Below, one piece after another: positions 55,151-64,000 of a stretch of 64,000 nucleotides of DNA. Source of the stretch: an uncultured Chloroflexia bacterium (GTDB lineage: Bacteria; Chloroflexota; Limnocylindria; Limnocylindrales; CSP1-4); NCBI GenBank assembly GCA_963833225.1, contig CAWHXD010000019.1, positions 448,001 through 512,000 of the forward strand, written 5' to 3'. The notes beneath the pieces are model-generated. The model saw only the letters and a program-made list of their open reading frames with translations. It made no database searches and had not been told where the DNA came from. Each line of letters starts with the position of its first letter. Position 1 is the first letter of the stretch. The position numbers and the translations under genes were made by a program.

Positions 55151-57442
55151 TCACTCCACCTTCTCGATCAACCCGCGCAGTGCAGCCTGGTCGGGCGCCA
55201 GCAGCTCCGCGACCCGGGTCCCGTTCACCTCCGCAACGATGATCTCGCCGAGCTCGGTCCGGACGTCGCCGTACAGTCCCAGCGCCTGCATCCGCTCGGT
55301 CTGGACCCGGTTGTCCTCGGTGGGGCTGACGTAGTGCACGGACCCTGCCTTGTAGCGGTGGACCAGGAACAGGTGCGCGAGCGTCATCAGCCGCCGCCGG
55401 CGGAATGCCGGCTCATACGTGCCCTGGTCGCGCACCGAGAGGATCGATCGGCCGCGCCGGTCGTGGATCGGGGCGAACACGATCGAGGCCACCCGCCGCC
55501 CATCGGCGCCCAAGAGGGTCAGATCCAGCAACTCCGAGCCGGCCCGATGGGGGAGCAGCCGCACTCGGAGTGCCTCGTCGACCCCGTTCGACGCCGCCCA
55601 CAGCGTGAGCCAGCTCTCGAGCAGCTTCTTGGGGACCTCCGTCTGGATCGCGTGCTGGTGCTGGGTTGAGCCCTTGCCCATCGCCATCGTCGTGGCGGTG
55701 CGCCCCGATGAGGCCCTCAGCGCGGCGTCCAGCCGCGGCCCGCCGACCAGCGTCTGCGGCGTCCGGTACGGTGACTCAAGGAGCCGGATCTTGCGCTGCA
55801 ACTTGGCCAGCGCCAGCATCCCCTCCTCCTGGAGCGAGCGAGCGAACTCCTCGCTCGCGACGCCGTCGACCTGGTGGCCGCCATAGGTGATGAAGTTGAA
55901 CACGAAGCCCATCTTCCCCAGCTCCTCGGGGAAGCGGCGCATCTCGTCGTCGCTCATCCCGGTGGAGTCCCAGTTGAAGGACGGCGACAGGTTGTAGGCG
56001 AGCATCTTGTCGGGATGCACGGCGTGGATGGCGTCGGCGAACTCCCTCGCGTCCGCGAGGTCCGCGGTCTTCGTCTCCATCCACAGGATGTCGGCGAACG
56101 GCGCCACGGCGAGCGACTTGGCGATCGCGTACGGGATCCCGCCCCGGACCTGGTAGTAGCCCTCGGGGGTGGCTGCGAGCTCCGGGTCCCACGCCACGTC
56201 GAGGCCCAGCGTGCGCGCGCGCTCCATGGCGACCGCGTGCGGGGCGCCCTCGGCGGACCTGAGCCACTCGTCTGCCGGCAGCGAGCGAGCGCCACCCTCA
56301 GACTCGGCCTCGCGCTGGCGGAGGTGGTCGGCGACGGCGTCGGCGTAGGTAACGAGCCCGGCCTCGTCATCCCACGCCTCGAGGAATCGGGCGGCGGCCC
56401 GATCGAACGTGGTGTCGACGTCGGCACCGGCAACGATCTCTGCCGCGGCCGCGTCCACCGCGGCCCGCAGGCCCGTGCGCTCGAGCCACGCATCGGCCGC
56501 GGCGTACTCGACGTCGGTGATCGCGTACAGAAGATGGCCGTTGAGCTCCTTGGCGCCGGCGGCGTGGAACCGGCGGATGAGCGCGAGGTAGGCGACCTTG
56601 TACGAGGGGACGTCGAGGTTGGTGACCCCGAGCACGAACGGCTGGTCCCGCTCGTCGGTCCGGGTCTCGATGAGGTTGGCCGACTCGGCATCGGTGCGGG
56701 CGACGATGATCCCGGGCACGCGCATGACATCGAGCTGGAGGCGGGCGGCGTTGAGGCGCTTGATCTGCTCGCTGGAGCTGACCAGCACCTTGCCCCCCTG
56801 GTGACCGCACTTCTTGGTGCCTGGCCGCTGGTCCTCGATGTGATAGCCGGGGACGCCCGCCTCCACGAACCGGCGAACGAGGTTGCGCACGTGGGGGTCG
56901 CCGCCGTGGCCGGTGTCGGCGTCGGCGATGATGAACGGGCGGTAGTCGACGGCGGGAGTCGCCTCGCGCTGGGCGGGGGTCATCCGGGAGCGCAGGTACG
57001 CCTGGTTGCGATCGGCGGTCAGCAGCGCGCGGACGAGGCCGGTCGCCTCGTCGGGCACCTGCGAGAGCGGGTATGACGCGAGATCCGGCCCCGGATCCTC
57101 GGTGGTCGAGCCCTTGGCCGAGGTCGCCCAGCCGCCCAGGTAGATGCCTTCGATCCCCAGGCGCTTCATGACCACGGCTTGGCCCGGCGAGTAGGGCCCG
57201 AAGGTGGTGACACTGCGGCCTTGGGCGAACAGCTCGCGCAGCCTCGCATGGAAGGCGGCGGCCGCCTCGCGGGCGACCGTGTGGTCCGAGGCGATCGTGC
57301 CTCGCTGCTCCACGACCTGGCGCGCCGAGTGGAGGCGGGTGAGCCCGGCGAAACGCGGCGAGGCGAGCCACGCGTGCGTCGCGGCGATGTCGTCCTCGAA
57401 CGGGGTCTGCGGGGCGGTCGTCAGGTCGAGCAGGGCGGTCAT
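55151..57442 (-). CDS. aceA: Isocitrate lyase, long ICL2 type
   Basis: [35 protein letters not shown]; extra central helical region and C-terminal extension. Confidence 0.95.
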
Positions 57443-59385
57443 GGCAGGTCTCCGGTCTCGGGCAGGTTCGGCGGGGGCTTGGCCGCCGGCGCCGGCTGGT
57501 CAGGTCGCGAGTTGAAGTCCGGATTGGCGGTGAGGCGGGTGCCGTCGCGGGCGATGGCGGCGAGGTAGCGGTTCGCCCGCTCCCGCTCGGTGGTCGGGCC
57601 CTCAGCCTCGAGGCCGAGGTTGAGCAGGTCGACGTACCAGGCTGGCTTGGCCGCCGCCGGCACGTAGGCTTCGACGGCCGCGCGGGCGACCGGCAGCGTG
57701 GTCTCCTTGGAGTCGTCGTGGACGTCGCGACCATTGGCGGCACGCAACTTCGCGTGCTCCTCGTCGAGAAGTCGCGCGAACAGGGCCGGCGTCAGCGCGT
57801 CCCCGGCGCGGACACCGGTCTCGGTGTCGTCCTCGGTGAATGGGGCGGCCTTGTGCAGCCACTCCCACAGGATCGAGAGCCGGATCTCACCGGTGGCCAT
57901 GTCCTCCATGAGGTACAGCACATCGTCATCGCCGAAGAAGTCGGCCGGCTTGAGAGCGGCAGCCTGGAAGCCGCGCAGGAACGCGTTGCCGTACTGGAGC
58001 CCCACCGAGAGCAGGTCGCGCGCGCCGCGGACCGTCCGCGGGGCCGGCTCGAGGGCAGTCAGGGCAGCCGCATCGTCCCCGTCGTAGGTGAGGGCCGGGA
58101 AGGAGCGTCCCAGCTGGTTGGCCTCGCCGGCGCGCTCCCACACCGGGCGGATGACGTGGACCATCTTCCAGTGGGCGACCCACTTGCCGGACGCGCCTTC
58201 GCGCTGCTCGCGCTCGGCGCCGGCGACGGCCTTGCCCATCGCGGACTCCACGCCCCGCTCCGAGCCAACGGGGATCTGCGCCTCCATGCCGCCCTGCCAC
58301 AGCGCGAACTGTCCGAGCGCATCGGGCGTGTTGACGGCGCGCCGCACGCGGTCCTCGTACGCACGCATGTAGGCGTACGTCATGCCGATGGCATCGATGT
58401 TCGGATTGGCGAAGCTGTCATTCCCGTGGAGCGCGTCGGCGACCGAGTTGATGTAGTCCCAGCGCCCAGTGTTGAAGCCCACGAAGTGGCGGCCGAGCGC
58501 GGCCCGGATCTCCATGAGCTGGAACGCTGCCTCGAGCTGCTCCACCAGCACGTACACGCGGATCGTGGCCGGTGGGAGTTCGAGGTGCGCCTCAAGGGAC
58601 TCGAGCAGCTCGCGCCACAGCGCCGCCTCATCGGCACGCTGGATCTTGGGCAGGTAGAGGGCGACGCTCCTGCCCTCGTCGAGCAGCGTGCGCGCGTTGG
58701 CGGCGACGTACAGGACGAGGTCCACGATCGAGGCGCCGAACCCGGTGCCGTCGGCCCGTCGGACATGCCGGTCGTCGAGATGGAGACCGCGCGGGCGGAA
58801 CAGGCGCGTCGTGAACCGGAGCTGATCTCGCCAGTCGTCGATGATGCGCCTGCCCAGGAAGGCTGCTGCCCAGTCGTTCATCTCGGCGGCAACGCCTTCC
58901 GCGATTGCCAGGAACCCAGGGTCGGCCGCGTACGCGAGCCGCAGGTTGCGCTGGTTGTCGAGCGCCATGAACTCGGTCTGGCCAAGGGCGTCCTCGCCGT
59001 CGAACATCCAGCCGTCGGCGCCTGAGAGCAGCGCGTACGCCGGGCTGCGCAGGCTCGACGCGAGCGAGCTTCGCGGCTTTGTCGCGGGCCCGGTGCCCTG
59101 GATCCACTGGCGCTCAAGGTCTGGCGGGATAGCGGCGCCCTCGAAGCGGCCGGCACGGGCGTCGGCCACCCGGATCGAGGTCCTGCCGATGGTCGAGGCG
59201 GGGTCGAGGAAGGCGACCGGCTCTCCATGGCGGGCGCGCTCGAGCCGCCGGCGGGCCCGGGCAGCCATCAGGTCGCGGCGCGCGTCGTCGAGCGGGGTCA
59301 GCGCCCTGAGGGCCGCCAGGGCGCCAGGGGTCAGGACATCCTCGTACGCGGGAAGCAGACCGCGACGAAGCTGCAGCGTGTCCAT
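57439..59385 (-). CDS. aceB: Malate synthase
   Basis: DGEDA, RPRG, YLPK, NTGRWDY, GGM, KWVAH, LMEDMAT.EI; ATGA-coupled to aceA. Confidence 0.92.
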
Positions 59386-59489: not shown

Positions 59490-59550
59490 GTAATCCGTCC
59501 CATCAATCCAATGCTTTGTTATGATAGTTAAGATCAACGATATCGATGGA
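59490..59550. promoter_or_regulatory. AT-rich divergent promoter with a LysR box
   Basis: ATC-N9-GAT (T-N11-A) at 59533-59547. Confidence 0.6.
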
Positions 59551-59563
59551 ATCAGGAGATACG

Positions 59564-60481
59564 GTGCTGACCGCGCAGGTCGAGGGCTTCTTGGAGATCG
59601 CCCGGTTGCGGAACCTCAGTCGCGCCGCGGGCGTGTTGCACCTGACCCAGCCAGCGCTCACGGCCCGGCTGCAGGCGTTGGAGGACGAGCTCGGCTCGCC
59701 GCTGTTCGAGCGATCCAGGCGGGGCATGCGGCTGACCGGGGCGGGCCGGGCGTTCCTGCCCTTCGCCGAGCGAGCGCTCGAGTCGATCGAGGCCGGCCGC
59801 TCGGTCGTCGCCGAGCATGCGCGGGGGCTCACCGGCCAGCTCACGATCGGCACCGCCCCTGCCGTTGGCGCCTACGTTCTGCCCGGCTTGCTGGCCCGGT
59901 TCATCCGCGACTTCCCGGGCATCCGGCTGGTCGTCCGCACCGGGCACTCGGAGGAGATCGTCCAGGCGGTCGCGGAGGGCAAGCTCGACGTTGGCCTGGT
60001 GCGCGAGCTGCACCACCCGGGCGTCACGGTCCGTCCGCTGTACGAGGACGAGCTGGTGCTCGTGGCGCCGCCCTCCAACGTGCTGGCCCGCGCCGGTCAT
60101 GTGGAGGTGGACCAGCTGGCCGACACGACGCTGATCCTGTTCGACCGCACATCGTCCTATTACGAGCTGACGCATGCCCTGTTCCGCGCGGCGGGCGTGG
60201 CACCGCGGGGCACGATCGAGCTGGACAACATCGAGGCCGCCAAGCAGATGGTGCGCCGCGGACTGGGCGTCGCCCTGCTGCCGCACTCGGCAATCGCGGC
60301 CGACGTCGCGAGCGGGTCGCTTCGCGCAGTGGCGCTCGAGGGAGTGGCACCTATGCGCCGCCGCCTGGTCGCGGTCCGCCGGGCAGGGGCGCCCGATTCG
60401 GGCCCCGCCGTCGCCGGGTTTCTCGACATTCTCGACCGTATCGACGAGATCATCCCGGACGAGGGCGCCATCCTCGCCTAG
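59564..60481 (+). CDS. LysR-family regulator
   Basis: SRAA..LHLTQPALT..L..LE.ELG..LFER, LT.AG; AGGAG RBS before GTG59564. Confidence 0.95.
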   Translation: MLTAQVEGFLEIARLRNLSRAAGVLHLTQPALTARLQALEDELGSPLFERSRRGMRLTGAGRAFLPFAERALESIEAGRSVVAEHARGLTGQLTIGTAPAVGAYVLPGLLARFIRDFPGIRLVVRTGHSEEIVQAVAEGKLDVGLVRELHHPGVTVRPLYEDELVLVAPPSNVLARAGHVEVDQLADTTLILFDRTSSYYELTHALFRAAGVAPRGTIELDNIEAAKQMVRRGLGVALLPHSAIAADVASGSLRAVALEGVAPMRRRLVAVRRAGAPDSGPAVAGFLDILDRIDEIIPDEGAILA

Positions 60482-60569: not shown

Positions 60570-60896
60570 TCAGGCTGCGGGTGGTCCCTCCTTCCGCTTC
60601 GCCTGGCTGGTCCGCAGGCGGTACGCCGAGCGGTCGGTCTCGAGGATGTGGGCCCGGAAGGGGTGCCAGTCGACGACCGCGGCGGCCAGCCGCGGGTTGG
60701 TGAAGCTGAGGAGCTCGGCGAGGTACGCCCGGTGGGTGATCCGGGACCGAACCGCCGCCGTGAGCTCGTCGGCCGGGGTCAGGCTGAGCCTCTGGTCGAC
60801 ATCGCCACCCGAGAGGAATCCGATCGCGCTGGGCAGGGCGACGAGCAGCACGCCGAGCATGAGCACGAGCTGGCCCCACCGTCGGCGGTCGTTCAT
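60570..60896 (-). CDS. Hypothetical protein with an N-terminal TM helix
   Basis: Hydrophobic N-terminus; GAGG RBS. Confidence 0.55.
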   Translation of the reverse strand: MNDRRRWGQLVLMLGVLLVALPSAIGFLSGGDVDQRLSLTPADELTAAVRSRITHRAYLAELLSFTNPRLAAAVVDWHPFRAHILETDRSAYRLRTSQAKRKEGPPAA

Positions 60897-61139
60897 TGCG
60901 TGCCATCCTCGGGCAATCGCCCGGTCGAACGCCCAGGGCCGCCCACGCTACAGGGCGGAGTTGCCCCGCAAACCACGCCCTATCGGACGCGGGGTGGGGG
61001 CAAGGCTTTGCCCGGACGCGCGCGCGACCGGCGGTGGCGACCGTTCTGCTCCGGCTGCTCCCCACGCAGCATGAGGGTCGGGCAACGAACGCTTCCTGGC
61101 GTGGCGGGCGAGATCCACGCCCTCGATGTCACGATGCCG

Positions 61140-61874
61140 TCAGTGCCAGTCGACGTTCACGACCTCCATCGGCCCGGAGAGGCCCTTGAGCGTCGCGCTT
61201 CGGGCCGCGGAGGTCCGGTGCGATTCGCCCACCGTCGCCACGCTGGCGACGATATCTCCGGCGCCCCCGAGAGCGGCGATCCGGGCGGCCTCGTGGACGC
61301 CCTTGCCGTGGAAGTCGCCGCCCACCTGCGTCGCATCGGAGGCATGAAGCCCGATGCGCACCTGGGGCGCGAACCCCTGCGTCGCCCGGTGTTCGGCGAG
61401 TCGCCGCTGGATCGCGATCGCGGCGGCCACGGCGAGGTCGGGCGAGTCGAAGCTGACGAAGAAGCCATCGCCCGTGGTGGAGATCTCCTCGCCGTCGTGC
61501 GCGGTGAACACCTCGCGCAGGGTCGTGTTGTGCCAGCGGAGCAGCGTCTCCCAGGCCTCGTCGCCCAGGGCCTCGACCAGGTTGGTGGAGCCGACGATGT
61601 CGGTGAACATGAACGTCTTGAGGACCCGCCGGGCGGGTCCGGTCTTGCCCCGCAGCTGCCAGGGCAGGAGCTCCGTGACGTCCTCGAGGACGATGGCCGC
61701 CGTCGGGCACGAGAACGCGGCGGCGCGGAGGATCTCCTCGTCGACGGTGTCCGGCCCGACCAGATCGCTCTTGCCGTAGTCGCCGGCCAGCCAGTCGAAG
61801 GCGGTCGGCGCGAGGGTGATGCAGTTGCCGGCCCCCACGCACTTGTGGCGGTCGACGCGCGCCCGGATCGCCAT
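61140..61874 (-). CDS. Ferredoxin-class III nucleotide cyclase fusion (244 aa)
   Basis: CVGAGNC...CPTAAI followed in frame by FMFTDIVGST, TGDGFF, RIGLH, GDFHG.GVHEAARI. Confidence 0.88.
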   Translation of the reverse strand: MAIRARVDRHKCVGAGNCITLAPTAFDWLAGDYGKSDLVGPDTVDEEILRAAAFSCPTAAIVLEDVTELLPWQLRGKTGPARRVLKTFMFTDIVGSTNLVEALGDEAWETLLRWHNTTLREVFTAHDGEEISTTGDGFFVSFDSPDLAVAAAIAIQRRLAEHRATQGFAPQVRIGLHASDATQVGGDFHGKGVHEAARIAALGGAGDIVASVATVGESHRTSAARSATLKGLSGPMEVVNVDWH

Positions 61875-64000
61875 CAGCGGGACCCCACAGTGGCGAGTCC
61901 GCGGAAGGCCAGCGACGTCGCCTCGGCGCGGCTCGACGCTCCCAGCCGGGCCTGCAGGTGCGCCAGCCGGCGGGCGACCTCGTCCTCGCCGACGTCGAGC
62001 TCGGCGGCGATCTCGGTGTTCGTCCGGCCCTGGGTCAGCAGCTGGAGCAGGCGGCGATCGGCCGCATCGAGGCTGGGTGCCGCGCCGGCCGGCCCGGGAC
62101 CCGTGGCCGGAGCGGGTGCCTCCATCGGCCCCGCCAGCTCGACCAGCCGGCGCCCGACCGGCCCGGTGAGCCACCGGACGCGGATCGCTTCGTCGGCCGT
62201 GCCCTGCGCGATCCTGGCCAGCGTCAGTTGGAGGTAGCCGCGGACGAACGCCTGGACCTCGGGCGGACCCCCGGCAAGCAGCGCCCGGGCCGCGGGAATG
62301 AGGATCTCCAGGCTGGTGTCCTCGTGAAGCCCGGCCTGGAGCGCCTCGAGGGCGGCACCGCCGGATGCCGCCGCGGCCGCCGTGTCGCCGCGCGCCAGGG
62401 CGACGTGGGCCAGTGCGGCGTCCGCCTGCGCCACCCACGGGGCGTGACCCGGAAGGAGTGGCAGGAGCGACGTCACCTGCGCCACGGATCGCTCGACGAC
62501 CTCGACCAGCGCGGCGTCCCGCTCGGTCGTGCCGGCCGCCGGCAGGCCGTCGGCGGTTCCGCCTTCGATGTGGCCGGCAGCCTCGATCGCGAGCCGCGCC
62601 AGCGTCTCGCAGCGGGCGGAGGCCCGGCCGCTTTCCGTCGCGATCGCGACCGCCCGCTCGAGATGGCGGAGCATGCCCTCGACATCGCCGGCCCCGGAAC
62701 GCACGATTCCCCGCCAGGTCTCGAGCTGGCGGGCACGAGTGCGCGACGGGGCCATGGACGCGGCCGTGGCGGCCAGGTCGAGCCAGCGCTCCGCCCCGTC
62801 CACGTCGCCGAGGTCGAGCAGGGCGAGCGCCACGCCACCGGCGGCCAGGAACTCGGTGCTCCGGTCGCCCAGCAGCCGGGCCGCCCGGTGGGCATCCTCG
62901 CCGCGCGTGATCGCGAGGTCCGGGACCACCTTGGCCCGCGAGTACACGTGGACCCCGAACAGCATCTGGAGATCGAGCCGATCGCGCTCGCTCTCGGTGA
63001 CGATCTCGGACAGGCGCGACGTCACCAGGCGGATCTCCTCGAGGTGGCGCGCCGAGTTGGACAGGTGCATCGCCGGCCCGTACCGCGCGTAGGCCATCGC
63101 GATGACGGTCGACATGACCCCGGTCCGGTCGCCGAGGCGCTCGAAGATGCCGAGCGCACGCTCGAGCACGTCCGTCGCCTCGGTCATCAGCGGGCCGATC
63201 GGCGAGCCGAGGATGAGCGCCTCCACGTCGGCACCCGATGCCACCGCGGCAACCATCTCGTTGGCGCGGCCGGCCATCACCTCGCCGCCGAACCACGCCC
63301 GGCCGCGGGCGAAGTCGATCATCCCGATCTCGCGCAGCGCCGCCGCCAGCTGGCGCTCGTCACCGAGCTGCCCGGCGAGCTCGATGGCGCGGCGGTATGC
63401 CTCCTCGGCCGCATCGAGGTCGATCTCGATCGCGGCGCCGCCGAACGACTCGCCCAGCGGGCTCCGGAGGGCGGCCTGGCCAAGCTCCATGGTGGCCCGG
63501 AGCTCCGTCCTGGCATCCCCGCGCTCGTGGGCCCGGGCCCGGACCCGCCCGGCCAGCTCCGCGGCCGTCTCCTCGTCATGGCTCATCCGGAGCGCCGATG
63601 CCCGCCGCAGCTGGACGTCGAGCTCGACCTCCGGGTCACGCATCGCCTCGGCGAGCGAAGCGAGCTCGGTCAAGCCATCCAGCCGCTCGCCGGTCTTTCG
63701 AAGGACGGCGTACGCGTCGTCGCGAGTCGCGAGGAGGACCCGCCGGTCGGCAGGGGCCGACACGACCGGGAGCGCCTGCTCGACGAGCCGGAGCGCCTCC
63801 TCGGGGGCATTGGAGGCCAGGGCGGCGCTCGCGGCATCGATCGAGAACCGGGCGGCCCGGGCGGTATCGCCGGCGGCGAGCGCGTGCTGGGCCAGCATCG
63901 GCAGGCCGGCCGGGGCGGGATCGCCGCCCTCGAGCAGCAGGTCGACGACGGCGGCGTGGACCTGGCGGCGACGCGCAGCCGACAGGTGGCTTGCGGCGAA
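61874..64000 (-). CDS. Large STAND/MalT-like regulator, C-terminal part (helical repeats + LuxR HTH); 5' end outside the window
   Basis: LSAARRRQVH, LAQH..AAGD..RA, TPR-like helices, GRTNTEIAAEL...LG..SR. Confidence 0.8.
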   Translation of the reverse strand, partial: FAASHLSAARRRQVHAAVVDLLLEGGDPAPAGLPMLAQHALAAGDTARAARFSIDAASAALASNAPEEALRLVEQALPVVSAPADRRVLLATRDDAYAVLRKTGERLDGLTELASLAEAMRDPEVELDVQLRRASALRMSHDEETAAELAGRVRARAHERGDARTELRATMELGQAALRSPLGESFGGAAIEIDLDAAEEAYRRAIELAGQLGDERQLAAALREIGMIDFARGRAWFGGEVMAGRANEMVAAVASGADVEALILGSPIGPLMTEATDVLERALGIFERLGDRTGVMSTVIAMAYARYGPAMHLSNSARHLEEIRLVTSRLSEIVTESERDRLDLQMLFGVHVYSRAKVVPDLAITRGEDAHRAARLLGDRSTEFLAAGGVALALLDLGDVDGAERWLDLAATAASMAPSRTRARQLETWRGIVRSGAGDVEGMLRHLERAVAIATESGRASARCETLARLAIEAAGHIEGGTADGLPAAGTTERDAALVEVVERSVAQVTSLLPLLPGHAPWVAQADAALAHVALARGDTAAAAASGGAALEALQAGLHEDTSLEILIPAARALLAGGPPEVQAFVRGYLQLTLARIAQGTADEAIRVRWLTGPVGRRLVELAGPMEAPAPATGPGPAGAAPSLDAADRRLLQLLTQGRTNTEIAAELDVGEDEVARRLAHLQARLGASSRAEATSLAFRGLATVGSR

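Follow-up and report, generated by a model that had tools for sequence, protein, structure and literature searches.

The locus described here raises the question of what a small iron-sulfur (Fe-S) ferredoxin does when it is fused to a nucleotide cyclase, and with which partner it works. The fusion protein, named Fd-CHD in the following (ferredoxin plus cyclase homology domain), is encoded in a stretch of 64,000 nucleotides, which is referred to as the window and covers positions 448,001 to 512,000 of contig CAWHXD010000019.1 (assembly GCA_963833225.1) of an uncultured Chloroflexia bacterium. By its domain composition Fd-CHD is a soluble two-domain protein that joins a small Fe-S ferredoxin to a class III cyclase. 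The gene is real, widely conserved in soil bacteria and uncharacterised, and judging from its sequence and gene context it probably couples gene control to redox state, oxygen or iron. The reading that we favor, to which we assign a probability of roughly 0.45, is that the ferredoxin domain docks into the sensor domain of a transcription regulator encoded directly upstream and in this way tethers the cyclase, and that the state of the cluster would set the synthesis of a cyclic nucleotide (cNMP), the activity of the regulator, or both.

A ferredoxin domain is fused to a class III cyclase domain

The Fd-CHD gene and its parts are located in the window as follows:

61140..61874 (-), Fd-CHD gene, 244 codons plus stop (stop codon at 61140-61142, ATG at 61874), from the translated reading frame and Pfam
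61680..61874 (-), ferredoxin domain, residues 1-65 (Fer4_13/Fer4_15), from Pfam and PDB sequence matches
61821..61841 (-), cluster motif C12-V-G-A15-G-N-C18, with invariant C12, A15 and C18
61704..61709 (-), C56-P57, the third cluster Cys and the Pro next to it, both kept in all 81 sequences
61623..61679 (-), linker, residues 66-84, with a conserved LLPWQLRG motif, from conservation and the AF2 model
61143..61622 (-), cyclase homology domain, residues 85-244, from PF00211, phmmer, AF2 and Foldseek
61599-61601 (-), codon of D92
61479-61481 (-), codon of S132
61467-61469 (-), codon of D136
61314-61316 (-), codon of D187
61293-61295 (-), codon of H194
61281-61283 (-), codon of R198

The mechanically called open reading frame (ORF) at this position is longer (61140-63296, 718 amino acids (aa)) and has the same frame, with Fd-CHD as its C-terminal third. 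Its first 474 codons overlap out of frame with a gene for a protein with a GerE/LuxR helix-turn-helix (HTH), and therefore the original prediction was correct in describing a 244-aa protein inside a longer spurious ORF. The source genome is metagenome-assembled, 86% complete and consists of 20 contigs.

The N-terminal part of Fd-CHD was matched by two ferredoxin families of Pfam, Fer4_13 at residues 7-61 (29.8 bits vs. a cut-off of 24.5) and Fer4_15 at residues 6-62 (25.7 bits vs. a cut-off of 22.4). In the whole protein there are only three Cys residues, C12, C18 and C56, which are arranged as C12-x2-A15-x2-C18...C56-P57, and a fourth Cys is absent. In the accessible text of Child et al. (2018, PMC6237146) the motif of [3Fe-4S] mono-cluster ferredoxins is given as CXXA/GXXC(X)nCP and that of the [4Fe-4S] form as CXXCXXC(X)nCP. 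The PDB entries matched by sequence are also mono-cluster ferredoxins (1rof/1vjw at 8e-7, and 4id8, 1dwl and 2z8q). As judged from the motif, the domain with its three Cys ligands most likely holds a [3Fe-4S] cluster. The earlier description of this part as a single-cluster ferredoxin of about 65 aa with a [3Fe-4S]-type pattern is thus borne out by the Pfam matches and the invariant motif.

The C-terminal part belongs to the Guanylate_cyc family (PF00211, residues 87-214, 36.8 bits vs. a cut-off of 21.9), where 128 residues span 142 profile positions. With phmmer the best PDB sequence matches were the cyclase homology domain (CHD) of Rv1900c from M. tuberculosis (1ybt, E 7e-23) and Ma1120 from M. 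avium (4wp3, E 1e-20). In the alignment to Rv1900c both metal-binding Asp residues are present, D92 (FTDIVGST) and D136 (GDGF), and D187, H194 (VHEAAR) and R198 align with D, H and R. At the purine-specifying position, where canonical class III cyclases have a Lys, no Lys is found and S132 aligns with an Asn of Rv1900c. The canonical Lys/Asp pair and the transition-state Asn are therefore absent, as Ser132 stands for the Lys and His194 for the Asn. This agrees with what had been noticed before, namely that the metal Asp residues and the catalytic Arg are kept (D92, D136 and R198 are invariant in 81 of 81 sequences), that the Lys is replaced and that the Asn is changed to His like in Rv1900c.

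The AF2 model, calculated from a 65-row alignment, has a predicted local distance difference test score (pLDDT) above 90 over most of residues 82-244 and below 50 in the linker (residues 66-79). Foldseek placed Ma1120 on top (4wpa, E 2e-16, template modelling score (TM) 0.90), next to Rv1900c (1ybu, TM 0.87), and the matches to structures of these two proteins have TM values of 0.85-0.90. The segment D180-G186, which leads from the RIGLHAS strand to D187 and would correspond to the dimerization arm, has about 7 residues when counted by eye, without a formal alignment to classes IIIa, IIIb and IIId. According to the accessible text of Linder (2015, PMC4626032), an arm of seven residues assigns a cyclase domain to class IIIc. 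By these features the domain of Fd-CHD appears to be a Rv1900c-like, short-arm class III cyclase domain. From the sequence of the two domains we infer cluster binding, catalysis and the redox, O2 or iron input, whereas the Ser/Asp pair gives no defensible prediction of the nucleotide that is made.

The fusion is conserved in many genomes

To follow the gene through other genomes, contigs with one genome per species were used. A relative is encoded by 454 of 553 candidate stretches, and the best 80 of these were analyzed, which gives 81 sequences together with the window. All of the best 80 are essentially full length (query residues 1-3 to 243-244) with 71-93% identity, and they come almost exclusively from metagenome-assembled genomes (MAGs) of Chloroflexia, Limnocylindria or Limnocylindrales. 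C12, A15, C18, C56, P57, D92, D136, H194 and R198 are invariant in all 81 sequences, S132 is kept in 80 and D187 in 70 (N in 4, S in 6, Q in 1). The translated proteins are 244 aa (69 sequences) or 245 aa (9 sequences) long, with single cases of 238, 252 and 571 aa. Mean conservation is even over the protein, with 0.86 for the ferredoxin domain, 0.89 for the linker with its LLPWQLRG motif and 0.87 for the cyclase domain.

The same protein was recovered in a search of 5.8 billion proteins, in which 8000 candidates were scored and 2979 reached E <= 0.001. The best 120 of these 2979 proteins show 77-92% identity, 116 of them have 244 aa, and 116 list PF00211 together with PF13370, while four list PF00211 alone. 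Candidatus Limnocylindrales and Chloroflexota are among the source names.

The window is taken from a MAG, and this could point to an artefact of assembly or gene calling that joined two genes. The probability of such an artefact is negligible. It is refuted by the protein clusters, as the 244-aa protein is found in 116 of the best 120 listed, by the genome loci, as the fusion is kept in 80 of 80 from many assemblies, and by short contigs of four other public runs (four studies), which bridge both the ferredoxin/cyclase linker and the regulator/ferredoxin junction. An assembly artefact at the junction, which was named beforehand as an observation that would overturn the fusion, is thereby ruled out, and the Fer4_13/Fer4_15 and Guanylate_cyc domains of Fd-CHD both score above the Pfam cut-offs.

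In a sample of the phylum the full-length fusion was present in 7 of 401 genomes (G000, G293, G277, G160, G261, G140 and G292), and a broken copy was present in G365. The sample contains three further genomes of the window's own genus, in none of which the fusion was detected. The distribution across the phylum is patchy. Among the data sets listed as containing positions 60900-62600 of the window there is no RNA data set; all of them have small shares, and this bears neither on expression nor on habitat.

Fd-CHD is encoded together with a STAND-LuxR regulator

Directly upstream of Fd-CHD lies the gene of the regulator:

61872..61876 (-), TGATG, overlap of the stop codon of the regulator gene and the start codon of the Fd-CHD gene
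61874..64000 (-), 3' part of the STAND-LuxR regulator gene, which extends past the window to the equivalent of 65293

In the 1139 aa of the regulator, an AAA_16 domain (residues 50-216) is followed by a long stretch of helices, and a GerE HTH (residues 1080-1129) forms the C-terminal part. Its TGA overlaps the ATG of Fd-CHD by 1 nt, and the two are separate genes in different frames. In all 80 loci the regulator gene is located directly upstream on the same strand, and the same was found in three of three distant loci from other families of the phylum, in which the identity is about 64% for Fd-CHD and 47-51% for the regulator, giving 83 of 83 loci. The junction CTGATGG is common to the 12 commonest junction strings. 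Fd-CHD thus stands at the end of an operon in which it follows a STAND-type AAA/helical-repeat/LuxR regulator, and to which a ferritin-like gene is often added. The genome contains 7 matches to cNMP-binding domains and 6 to cyclase domains, and a cNMP signal could thus be received.

Relatives of the cyclase domain were searched among 1.84 billion representatives, of which 331 reached E <= 1e-30, and 49 of the 150 listed were scanned with Pfam. Few of these are ferredoxin-cyclase clusters; P0123 is a clean one with 69% identity. The nearest cyclase domains without a ferredoxin (about 47-61% identity) are all located C-terminally, namely in AAA_16-GerE proteins (P0131, P0196), GerE proteins (P0190), TPR proteins with a length of about 650 aa, BTAD-AAA_16 proteins, a protoglobin (P0169), and FHA-FtsK and kinase-STAND proteins. 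Cyclase domains of this clade are thus habitually C-terminal appendages of STAND-type regulators. In the operon the same STAND/LuxR/cyclase combination is distributed over two genes, and the cyclase has gained a ferredoxin where its polypeptide now begins.

Several representatives of this search had to be set aside. The apparent LuxR-HTH/ferredoxin/cyclase fusions P0125, P0126, P0128 and P0134, which are metagenome ORFs, contain frameshifted stretches and were rejected as evidence for a fusion. The apparent fusion of Fd-CHD with Pyr_redox_2 in P0124 is frameshifted as well, and its Pyr_redox_2 part matched nothing in 85 related loci. Together with P0142 these are the frameshifted chimeras observed among the representatives clustered at 50%. 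As the HTH is read through into the ferredoxin and the cyclase into Pyr_redox_2 in such chimeras, architecture counts that are based on such protein collections would overstate fusions.

The ferredoxin domain is predicted to dock into the regulator

A complex was predicted from residues 400-1139 of the regulator (39-row alignment) and Fd-CHD (65-row alignment). The complex score had a median of 0.82 (0.82, 0.83 and 0.75 in the three runs), whereas the best of three controls scored 0.00. The mark of 0.82 is reached by 116 of 157 solved complexes and by 2 of 215 mismatched pairs, counts that are rough where own alignments are used, and a pass in such a prediction supports binding without demonstrating it. 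The runs share at least 76% of their contacts, and the pLDDT of the partner is at least 76.

In the predicted contact all confident contacts of Fd-CHD are made by residues 9-59, which belong to the ferredoxin domain, and they include A15, N17, C56 and P57. On the side of the regulator the contacts lie within residues 610-992, in the helical-repeat domain. Compared with the other residues of the stretch 600-999, those at the interface show a somewhat higher conservation (0.76 vs. 0.67, permutation p 0.013), and among the conserved ones are E615, R665, H743, R755, Q776, G780, V783, L947-H950 and W953. A helix of the regulator (residues 776-787), which has H782 (0.92) and Y784 (0.74), is placed in the model against A15, the position of the missing fourth ligand.

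Regulator residue C895 is invariant in 39 of 39 aligned sequences, and C37 and C102 are kept in 97% and 69%, respectively (L001 frame). C895 is located near the interface residues 888-893, and the conserved His residues H743, H782 and H950 lie in or beside the predicted cluster-face contact.

According to the favored reading, the ferredoxin domain would turn its cluster face to the helical-repeat sensor domain of the regulator and dock there. This docking would tether the cyclase non-covalently, where close relatives of the cyclase are fused directly to a regulator (AAA_16-GerE-CHD). Whether the cluster is oxidized, reduced, damaged or missing would then determine the synthesis of cNMP, the activity of the regulator, or both. 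Tentatively, and with rather low confidence, the idea can be taken further: the ferredoxin domain could be the physiological 'ligand' of the sensor domain, and docking that depends on the cluster could recruit the cyclase, so that iron, O2 or redox state would be read at a protein-protein interface and not through a small molecule. In its boldest version, suggested by the helix modelled against A15, the regulator might complete or bridge the cluster across the interface.

A ferritin-like gene often accompanies the pair

Upstream of the regulator gene, outside the window, the operon contains a third gene:

L001:8294-9652, equivalent to 65293-66651 of the window (-), ferritin-like gene, PF12902 with E 8e-43

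The encoded protein has 453 aa, and the stop codon of its gene overlaps the start of the regulator gene (ATGA). Two ExxH motifs can be read in the sequence, and besides PF12902 only weak partial matches were obtained, to the C-terminal part of VioB and to PDB 3hl1. Among the 80 loci, 27 have this gene next to the pair of regulator and Fd-CHD (on the upstream side in 24 and on the downstream side in 3), and of the 3 distant loci, one has it downstream and another has it in divergent orientation. Within the phylum sample, 6 of the 7 fusion genomes contain the gene, compared to 21 of the 394 genomes that lack the fusion. One of these 21, G272, is an unpublished genome, and related genomes do not count as independent cases.

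Alternative explanations

Several points weigh against the favored reading. The model of the complex contains no Fe-S cluster, and consequently the Cys ligands were modelled as surface; its score is the model's own confidence, obtained with own alignments, and the prediction covered only the C-terminal 740 residues of the regulator, with the N-terminal 399 left out. In the AF2 monomer the ferredoxin domain has a pLDDT of 52-64 and its orientation to the cyclase domain is not fixed. The 83 loci come mostly from one class and their counts are not independent, and the host organisms are uncultured. The ferritin-like gene is absent beside the pair in 53 of 80 loci, and it also occurs without the pair, e.g., in G349 of the window's own genus. 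No cNMP-binding domain was recognized in the regulator. Concerning the catalytic residues, the substrate-specifying Lys is a Ser, the transition-state Asn is a His and D187 varies in 11 of 81 sequences. Rv1900c, with its Asn-to-His change, is a weak enzyme, although it is reportedly active nevertheless, and the activity of Fd-CHD could therefore be low or its product unusual.

In the original prediction Fd-CHD was a redox-gated cyclase. As a free-standing enzyme of this kind, its Fe-S domain would regulate its own cyclase and the cNMP would diffuse to the cNMP-binding proteins of the genome; the regulator would be just co-expressed or be a downstream target. The fusion of the two domains with its conserved LLPWQLRG linker agrees with this, as do the 7 cNMP-binding matches in the genome and a regulator that has no cNMP-binding domain in need of a local supply. 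However, the regulator gene precedes Fd-CHD in 83 of 83 loci, the overlap of the two genes is conserved, the predicted complex makes its contacts via the ferredoxin domain, and related cyclase domains form part of the polypeptide of such regulators, so that we regard a free-standing enzyme as rather doubtful. The same attachment of this cyclase clade to STAND, TPR and LuxR modules with DNA-binding output would suit a different explanation, in which Fd-CHD is an Fe-S co-regulator and sensor subunit of the STAND regulator, and the cyclase-like domain is barely or not catalytic and serves for dimerization or nucleotide binding. The replaced canonical Lys and Asn fit to such a role, and so does an interface that is predicted to be formed by the ferredoxin domain alone. 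It is nonetheless unlikely, because all 81 sequences keep the metal Asp pair, the Arg and the His, although an enzyme without activity would not be expected to do so, and because the relatives Rv1900c and Ma1120 were deposited as adenylyl cyclases with substrate analogues bound.

The ferritin-like gene leads to another explanation. Its product, a putative di-iron protein with two ExxH motifs, could receive electrons from the ferredoxin, and the cyclase would then report electron flux. In favor of this, the gene lies next to the pair in 27 of 80 loci and in 2 of the 3 distant ones, its arrangement takes three forms, and it is more frequent among genomes with the fusion (6 of 7) than among those lacking it (21 of 394). 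We consider an electron carrier quite unlikely, as the ferritin-like gene is missing beside the pair in most loci and occurs on its own, its product has only the weak partial matches mentioned above, and no conserved reductase is present nearby (a Pyr_redox_2 query matched nothing in the 85 related loci L002-L086). A role as a Pycsar-like anti-phage pyrimidine cyclase is very improbable. For this role one could name the missing purine-specifying Lys and weak partial PADLOC matches to PycC models (E 3e-5 to 1e-3), but these matches cover residues 81-177 at most, less than half of the domain, compared to 1e-20 to 1e-23 for Rv1900c and Ma1120. Moreover, no adjacent effector with a cNMP-binding domain is found, the neighbors being the LuxR-STAND, ferritin-like, LysR and glyoxylate-shunt genes, and the conserved partner is a transcription regulator.

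Other genes in the neighborhood

Directly downstream of Fd-CHD a 108-aa ORF with a hydrophobic N-terminal stretch is located at 60570-60896 (-) of the window. Neither a Pfam family nor a match in 80 related loci was found for it, and it may be lineage-specific or no gene at all. It is followed by genes of the glyoxylate shunt, for an isocitrate lyase of 763 aa and a malate synthase of 648 aa, and by a divergent LysR gene (55151-59385 (-) and 59546-60481 (+)). When these downstream genes were searched for beside the pair in relatives by targeted tblastn, the 108-aa ORF was found in 0 of 80 loci, the LysR gene in 2, the malate synthase gene in 1 and the isocitrate lyase gene in 1.

On the other side, divergent from the ferritin-like gene and outside the window (L001:9671-14082 (+)), a hybrid histidine kinase of 1167 aa is encoded, with two PAS domains, HisKA, HATPase, two receiver domains and Hpt. 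The end of its gene is overlapped by a gene for a receiver-GGDEF diguanylate cyclase, which makes this a dense signalling neighborhood.

Comparison with known systems

The [3Fe-4S] ferredoxins of the Fer4_13/Fer4_15 type that serve as redox partners of actinobacterial cytochromes P450 are free-standing electron carriers encoded beside P450 genes. In contrast, the ferredoxin of Fd-CHD is fused to a cyclase, and no P450 was seen among the 10 neighboring ORFs that were scanned.

Of the cyclases with a solved structure Rv1900c (LipJ) and Ma1120 are closest with regard to the catalytic domain. They gave the best sequence and fold matches, and Rv1900c shares with Fd-CHD the His in place of the Asn, the conserved Asp and Arg residues and the missing Lys, and apparently also a short dimerization arm. 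However, by its NCBIfam name and the title of 1ybt the CHD of Rv1900c is joined to a lipase or alpha/beta-hydrolase domain, where Fd-CHD has its N-terminal ferredoxin. An assignment of Fd-CHD as a LipJ equivalog was excluded, as the NCBIfam LipJ model gave 103.5 bits vs. a cut-off of 800. The Lys position is occupied by Ser in Fd-CHD, by Asn in Rv1900c and by Lys in Ma1120 (PDB 1ybt/1ybu and 4wp3-4wpa), and Ma1120 is known here as the catalytic domain only.

STAND/LAL-type LuxR regulators and attached class III cyclase domains, including the Rv0386 group, are widespread. The cyclase domain of Rv0386 is presumably N-terminal, and Rv0890c/Rv0891c form a split CHD/LuxR pair. A mycobacterial CHD+LuxR sub-family that includes Rv0386 is described in the accessible text of PMC3466318. 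These proteins and P0131 and P0196 contain the same trio of STAND ATPase, LuxR HTH and class III cyclase domain as the operon described here. The cyclase domain of Fd-CHD is 58% identical to that of P0131 and 56% to that of P0196 over the matched stretch (47% and 46% in the alignment), whereas the similarity of the regulator to these two proteins is confined to the NTPase part (about 30% identity) and the HTH part. The CHD+LuxR fusions form one polypeptide; here the cyclase is a separate protein with an N-terminal ferredoxin, for which docking to the regulator is predicted. With its small soluble two-gene arrangement, a possible Fe-S cluster as the input and a predicted contact surface, the system allows to test the idea of a ferredoxin as the sensed ligand directly with two recombinant proteins. 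The family belongs to Limnocylindria-type Chloroflexota, which are without cultured representatives for the Fd-CHD gene.

A small metal-binding sensor on a minimal cyclase has been reported before. The YHS-domain class IIIc adenylyl cyclase of Mycobacterium phlei is minimal and soluble with a short linker, as far as the accessible text of PMC4626032 goes. Its YHS domain is C-terminal and proposed there to be a copper sensor, in difference to Fd-CHD, in which the sensor is an N-terminal Fe-S domain and a dedicated regulator partner is present.

Fe-S-linked cyclases are already known as well. A catalogue of 30 class IIIb cyclases with a cytochrome-b-like six-transmembrane (6TM) anchor and a ferredoxin is given in the accessible text of Beltz et al. 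(2016, PMC4821796), and the portions available of PMC10463352 describe CyaC (SMc01818) of Sinorhizobium meliloti as an enzyme with two haems B and a [2Fe-2S] cluster that is activated by oxidation via quinones and forms complexes with the transcription factors Clr and CycR. The original prediction knew of no characterized cyclase with a ferredoxin of this type. This stands for the mono-cluster Fer4_13 type, for which no description of a fusion to a cyclase was found in the literature, with Beltz et al. (2016) as the nearest; in a broader sense it does not, given the characterized [2Fe-2S] cluster of CyaC and the class IIIb ferredoxin cyclases catalogued in 2016. Likewise, the architecture, the three-Cys motif, the Rv1900c-like catalytic set and the genuine junction were seen correctly, whereas the coupled STAND-LuxR regulator (83 of 83 loci) and the possible docking role of the ferredoxin were missed.

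With CyaC, whose activity is described in these sources as redox-sensitive, Fd-CHD has in common a class III cyclase linked to a putative Fe-S module and, by prediction, an association with a transcription regulator, and by analogy it may work like CyaC. CyaC, however, is a membrane-bound class IIIb enzyme with a di-haem-B 6TM anchor and a [2Fe-2S] cluster, whereas Fd-CHD carries a three-Cys Fer4_13 ferredoxin and a Rv1900c-like cyclase domain and has a STAND-LuxR partner. Pfam gave neither a membrane-anchor family nor a 2Fe-2S family in Fd-CHD, in which the ferredoxin starts at residue 1 and the cyclase extends to the last of the 244 residues, so that no space is left for a 6TM anchor. As both modules are lacking, Fd-CHD is not a member of the CyaC family. 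What sets Fd-CHD apart is the mono-cluster Fer4_13 type together with the STAND-LuxR partner. Next to CyaC, its family would be another type of Fe-S-linked cyclase, the second one and without structural relation to the first.

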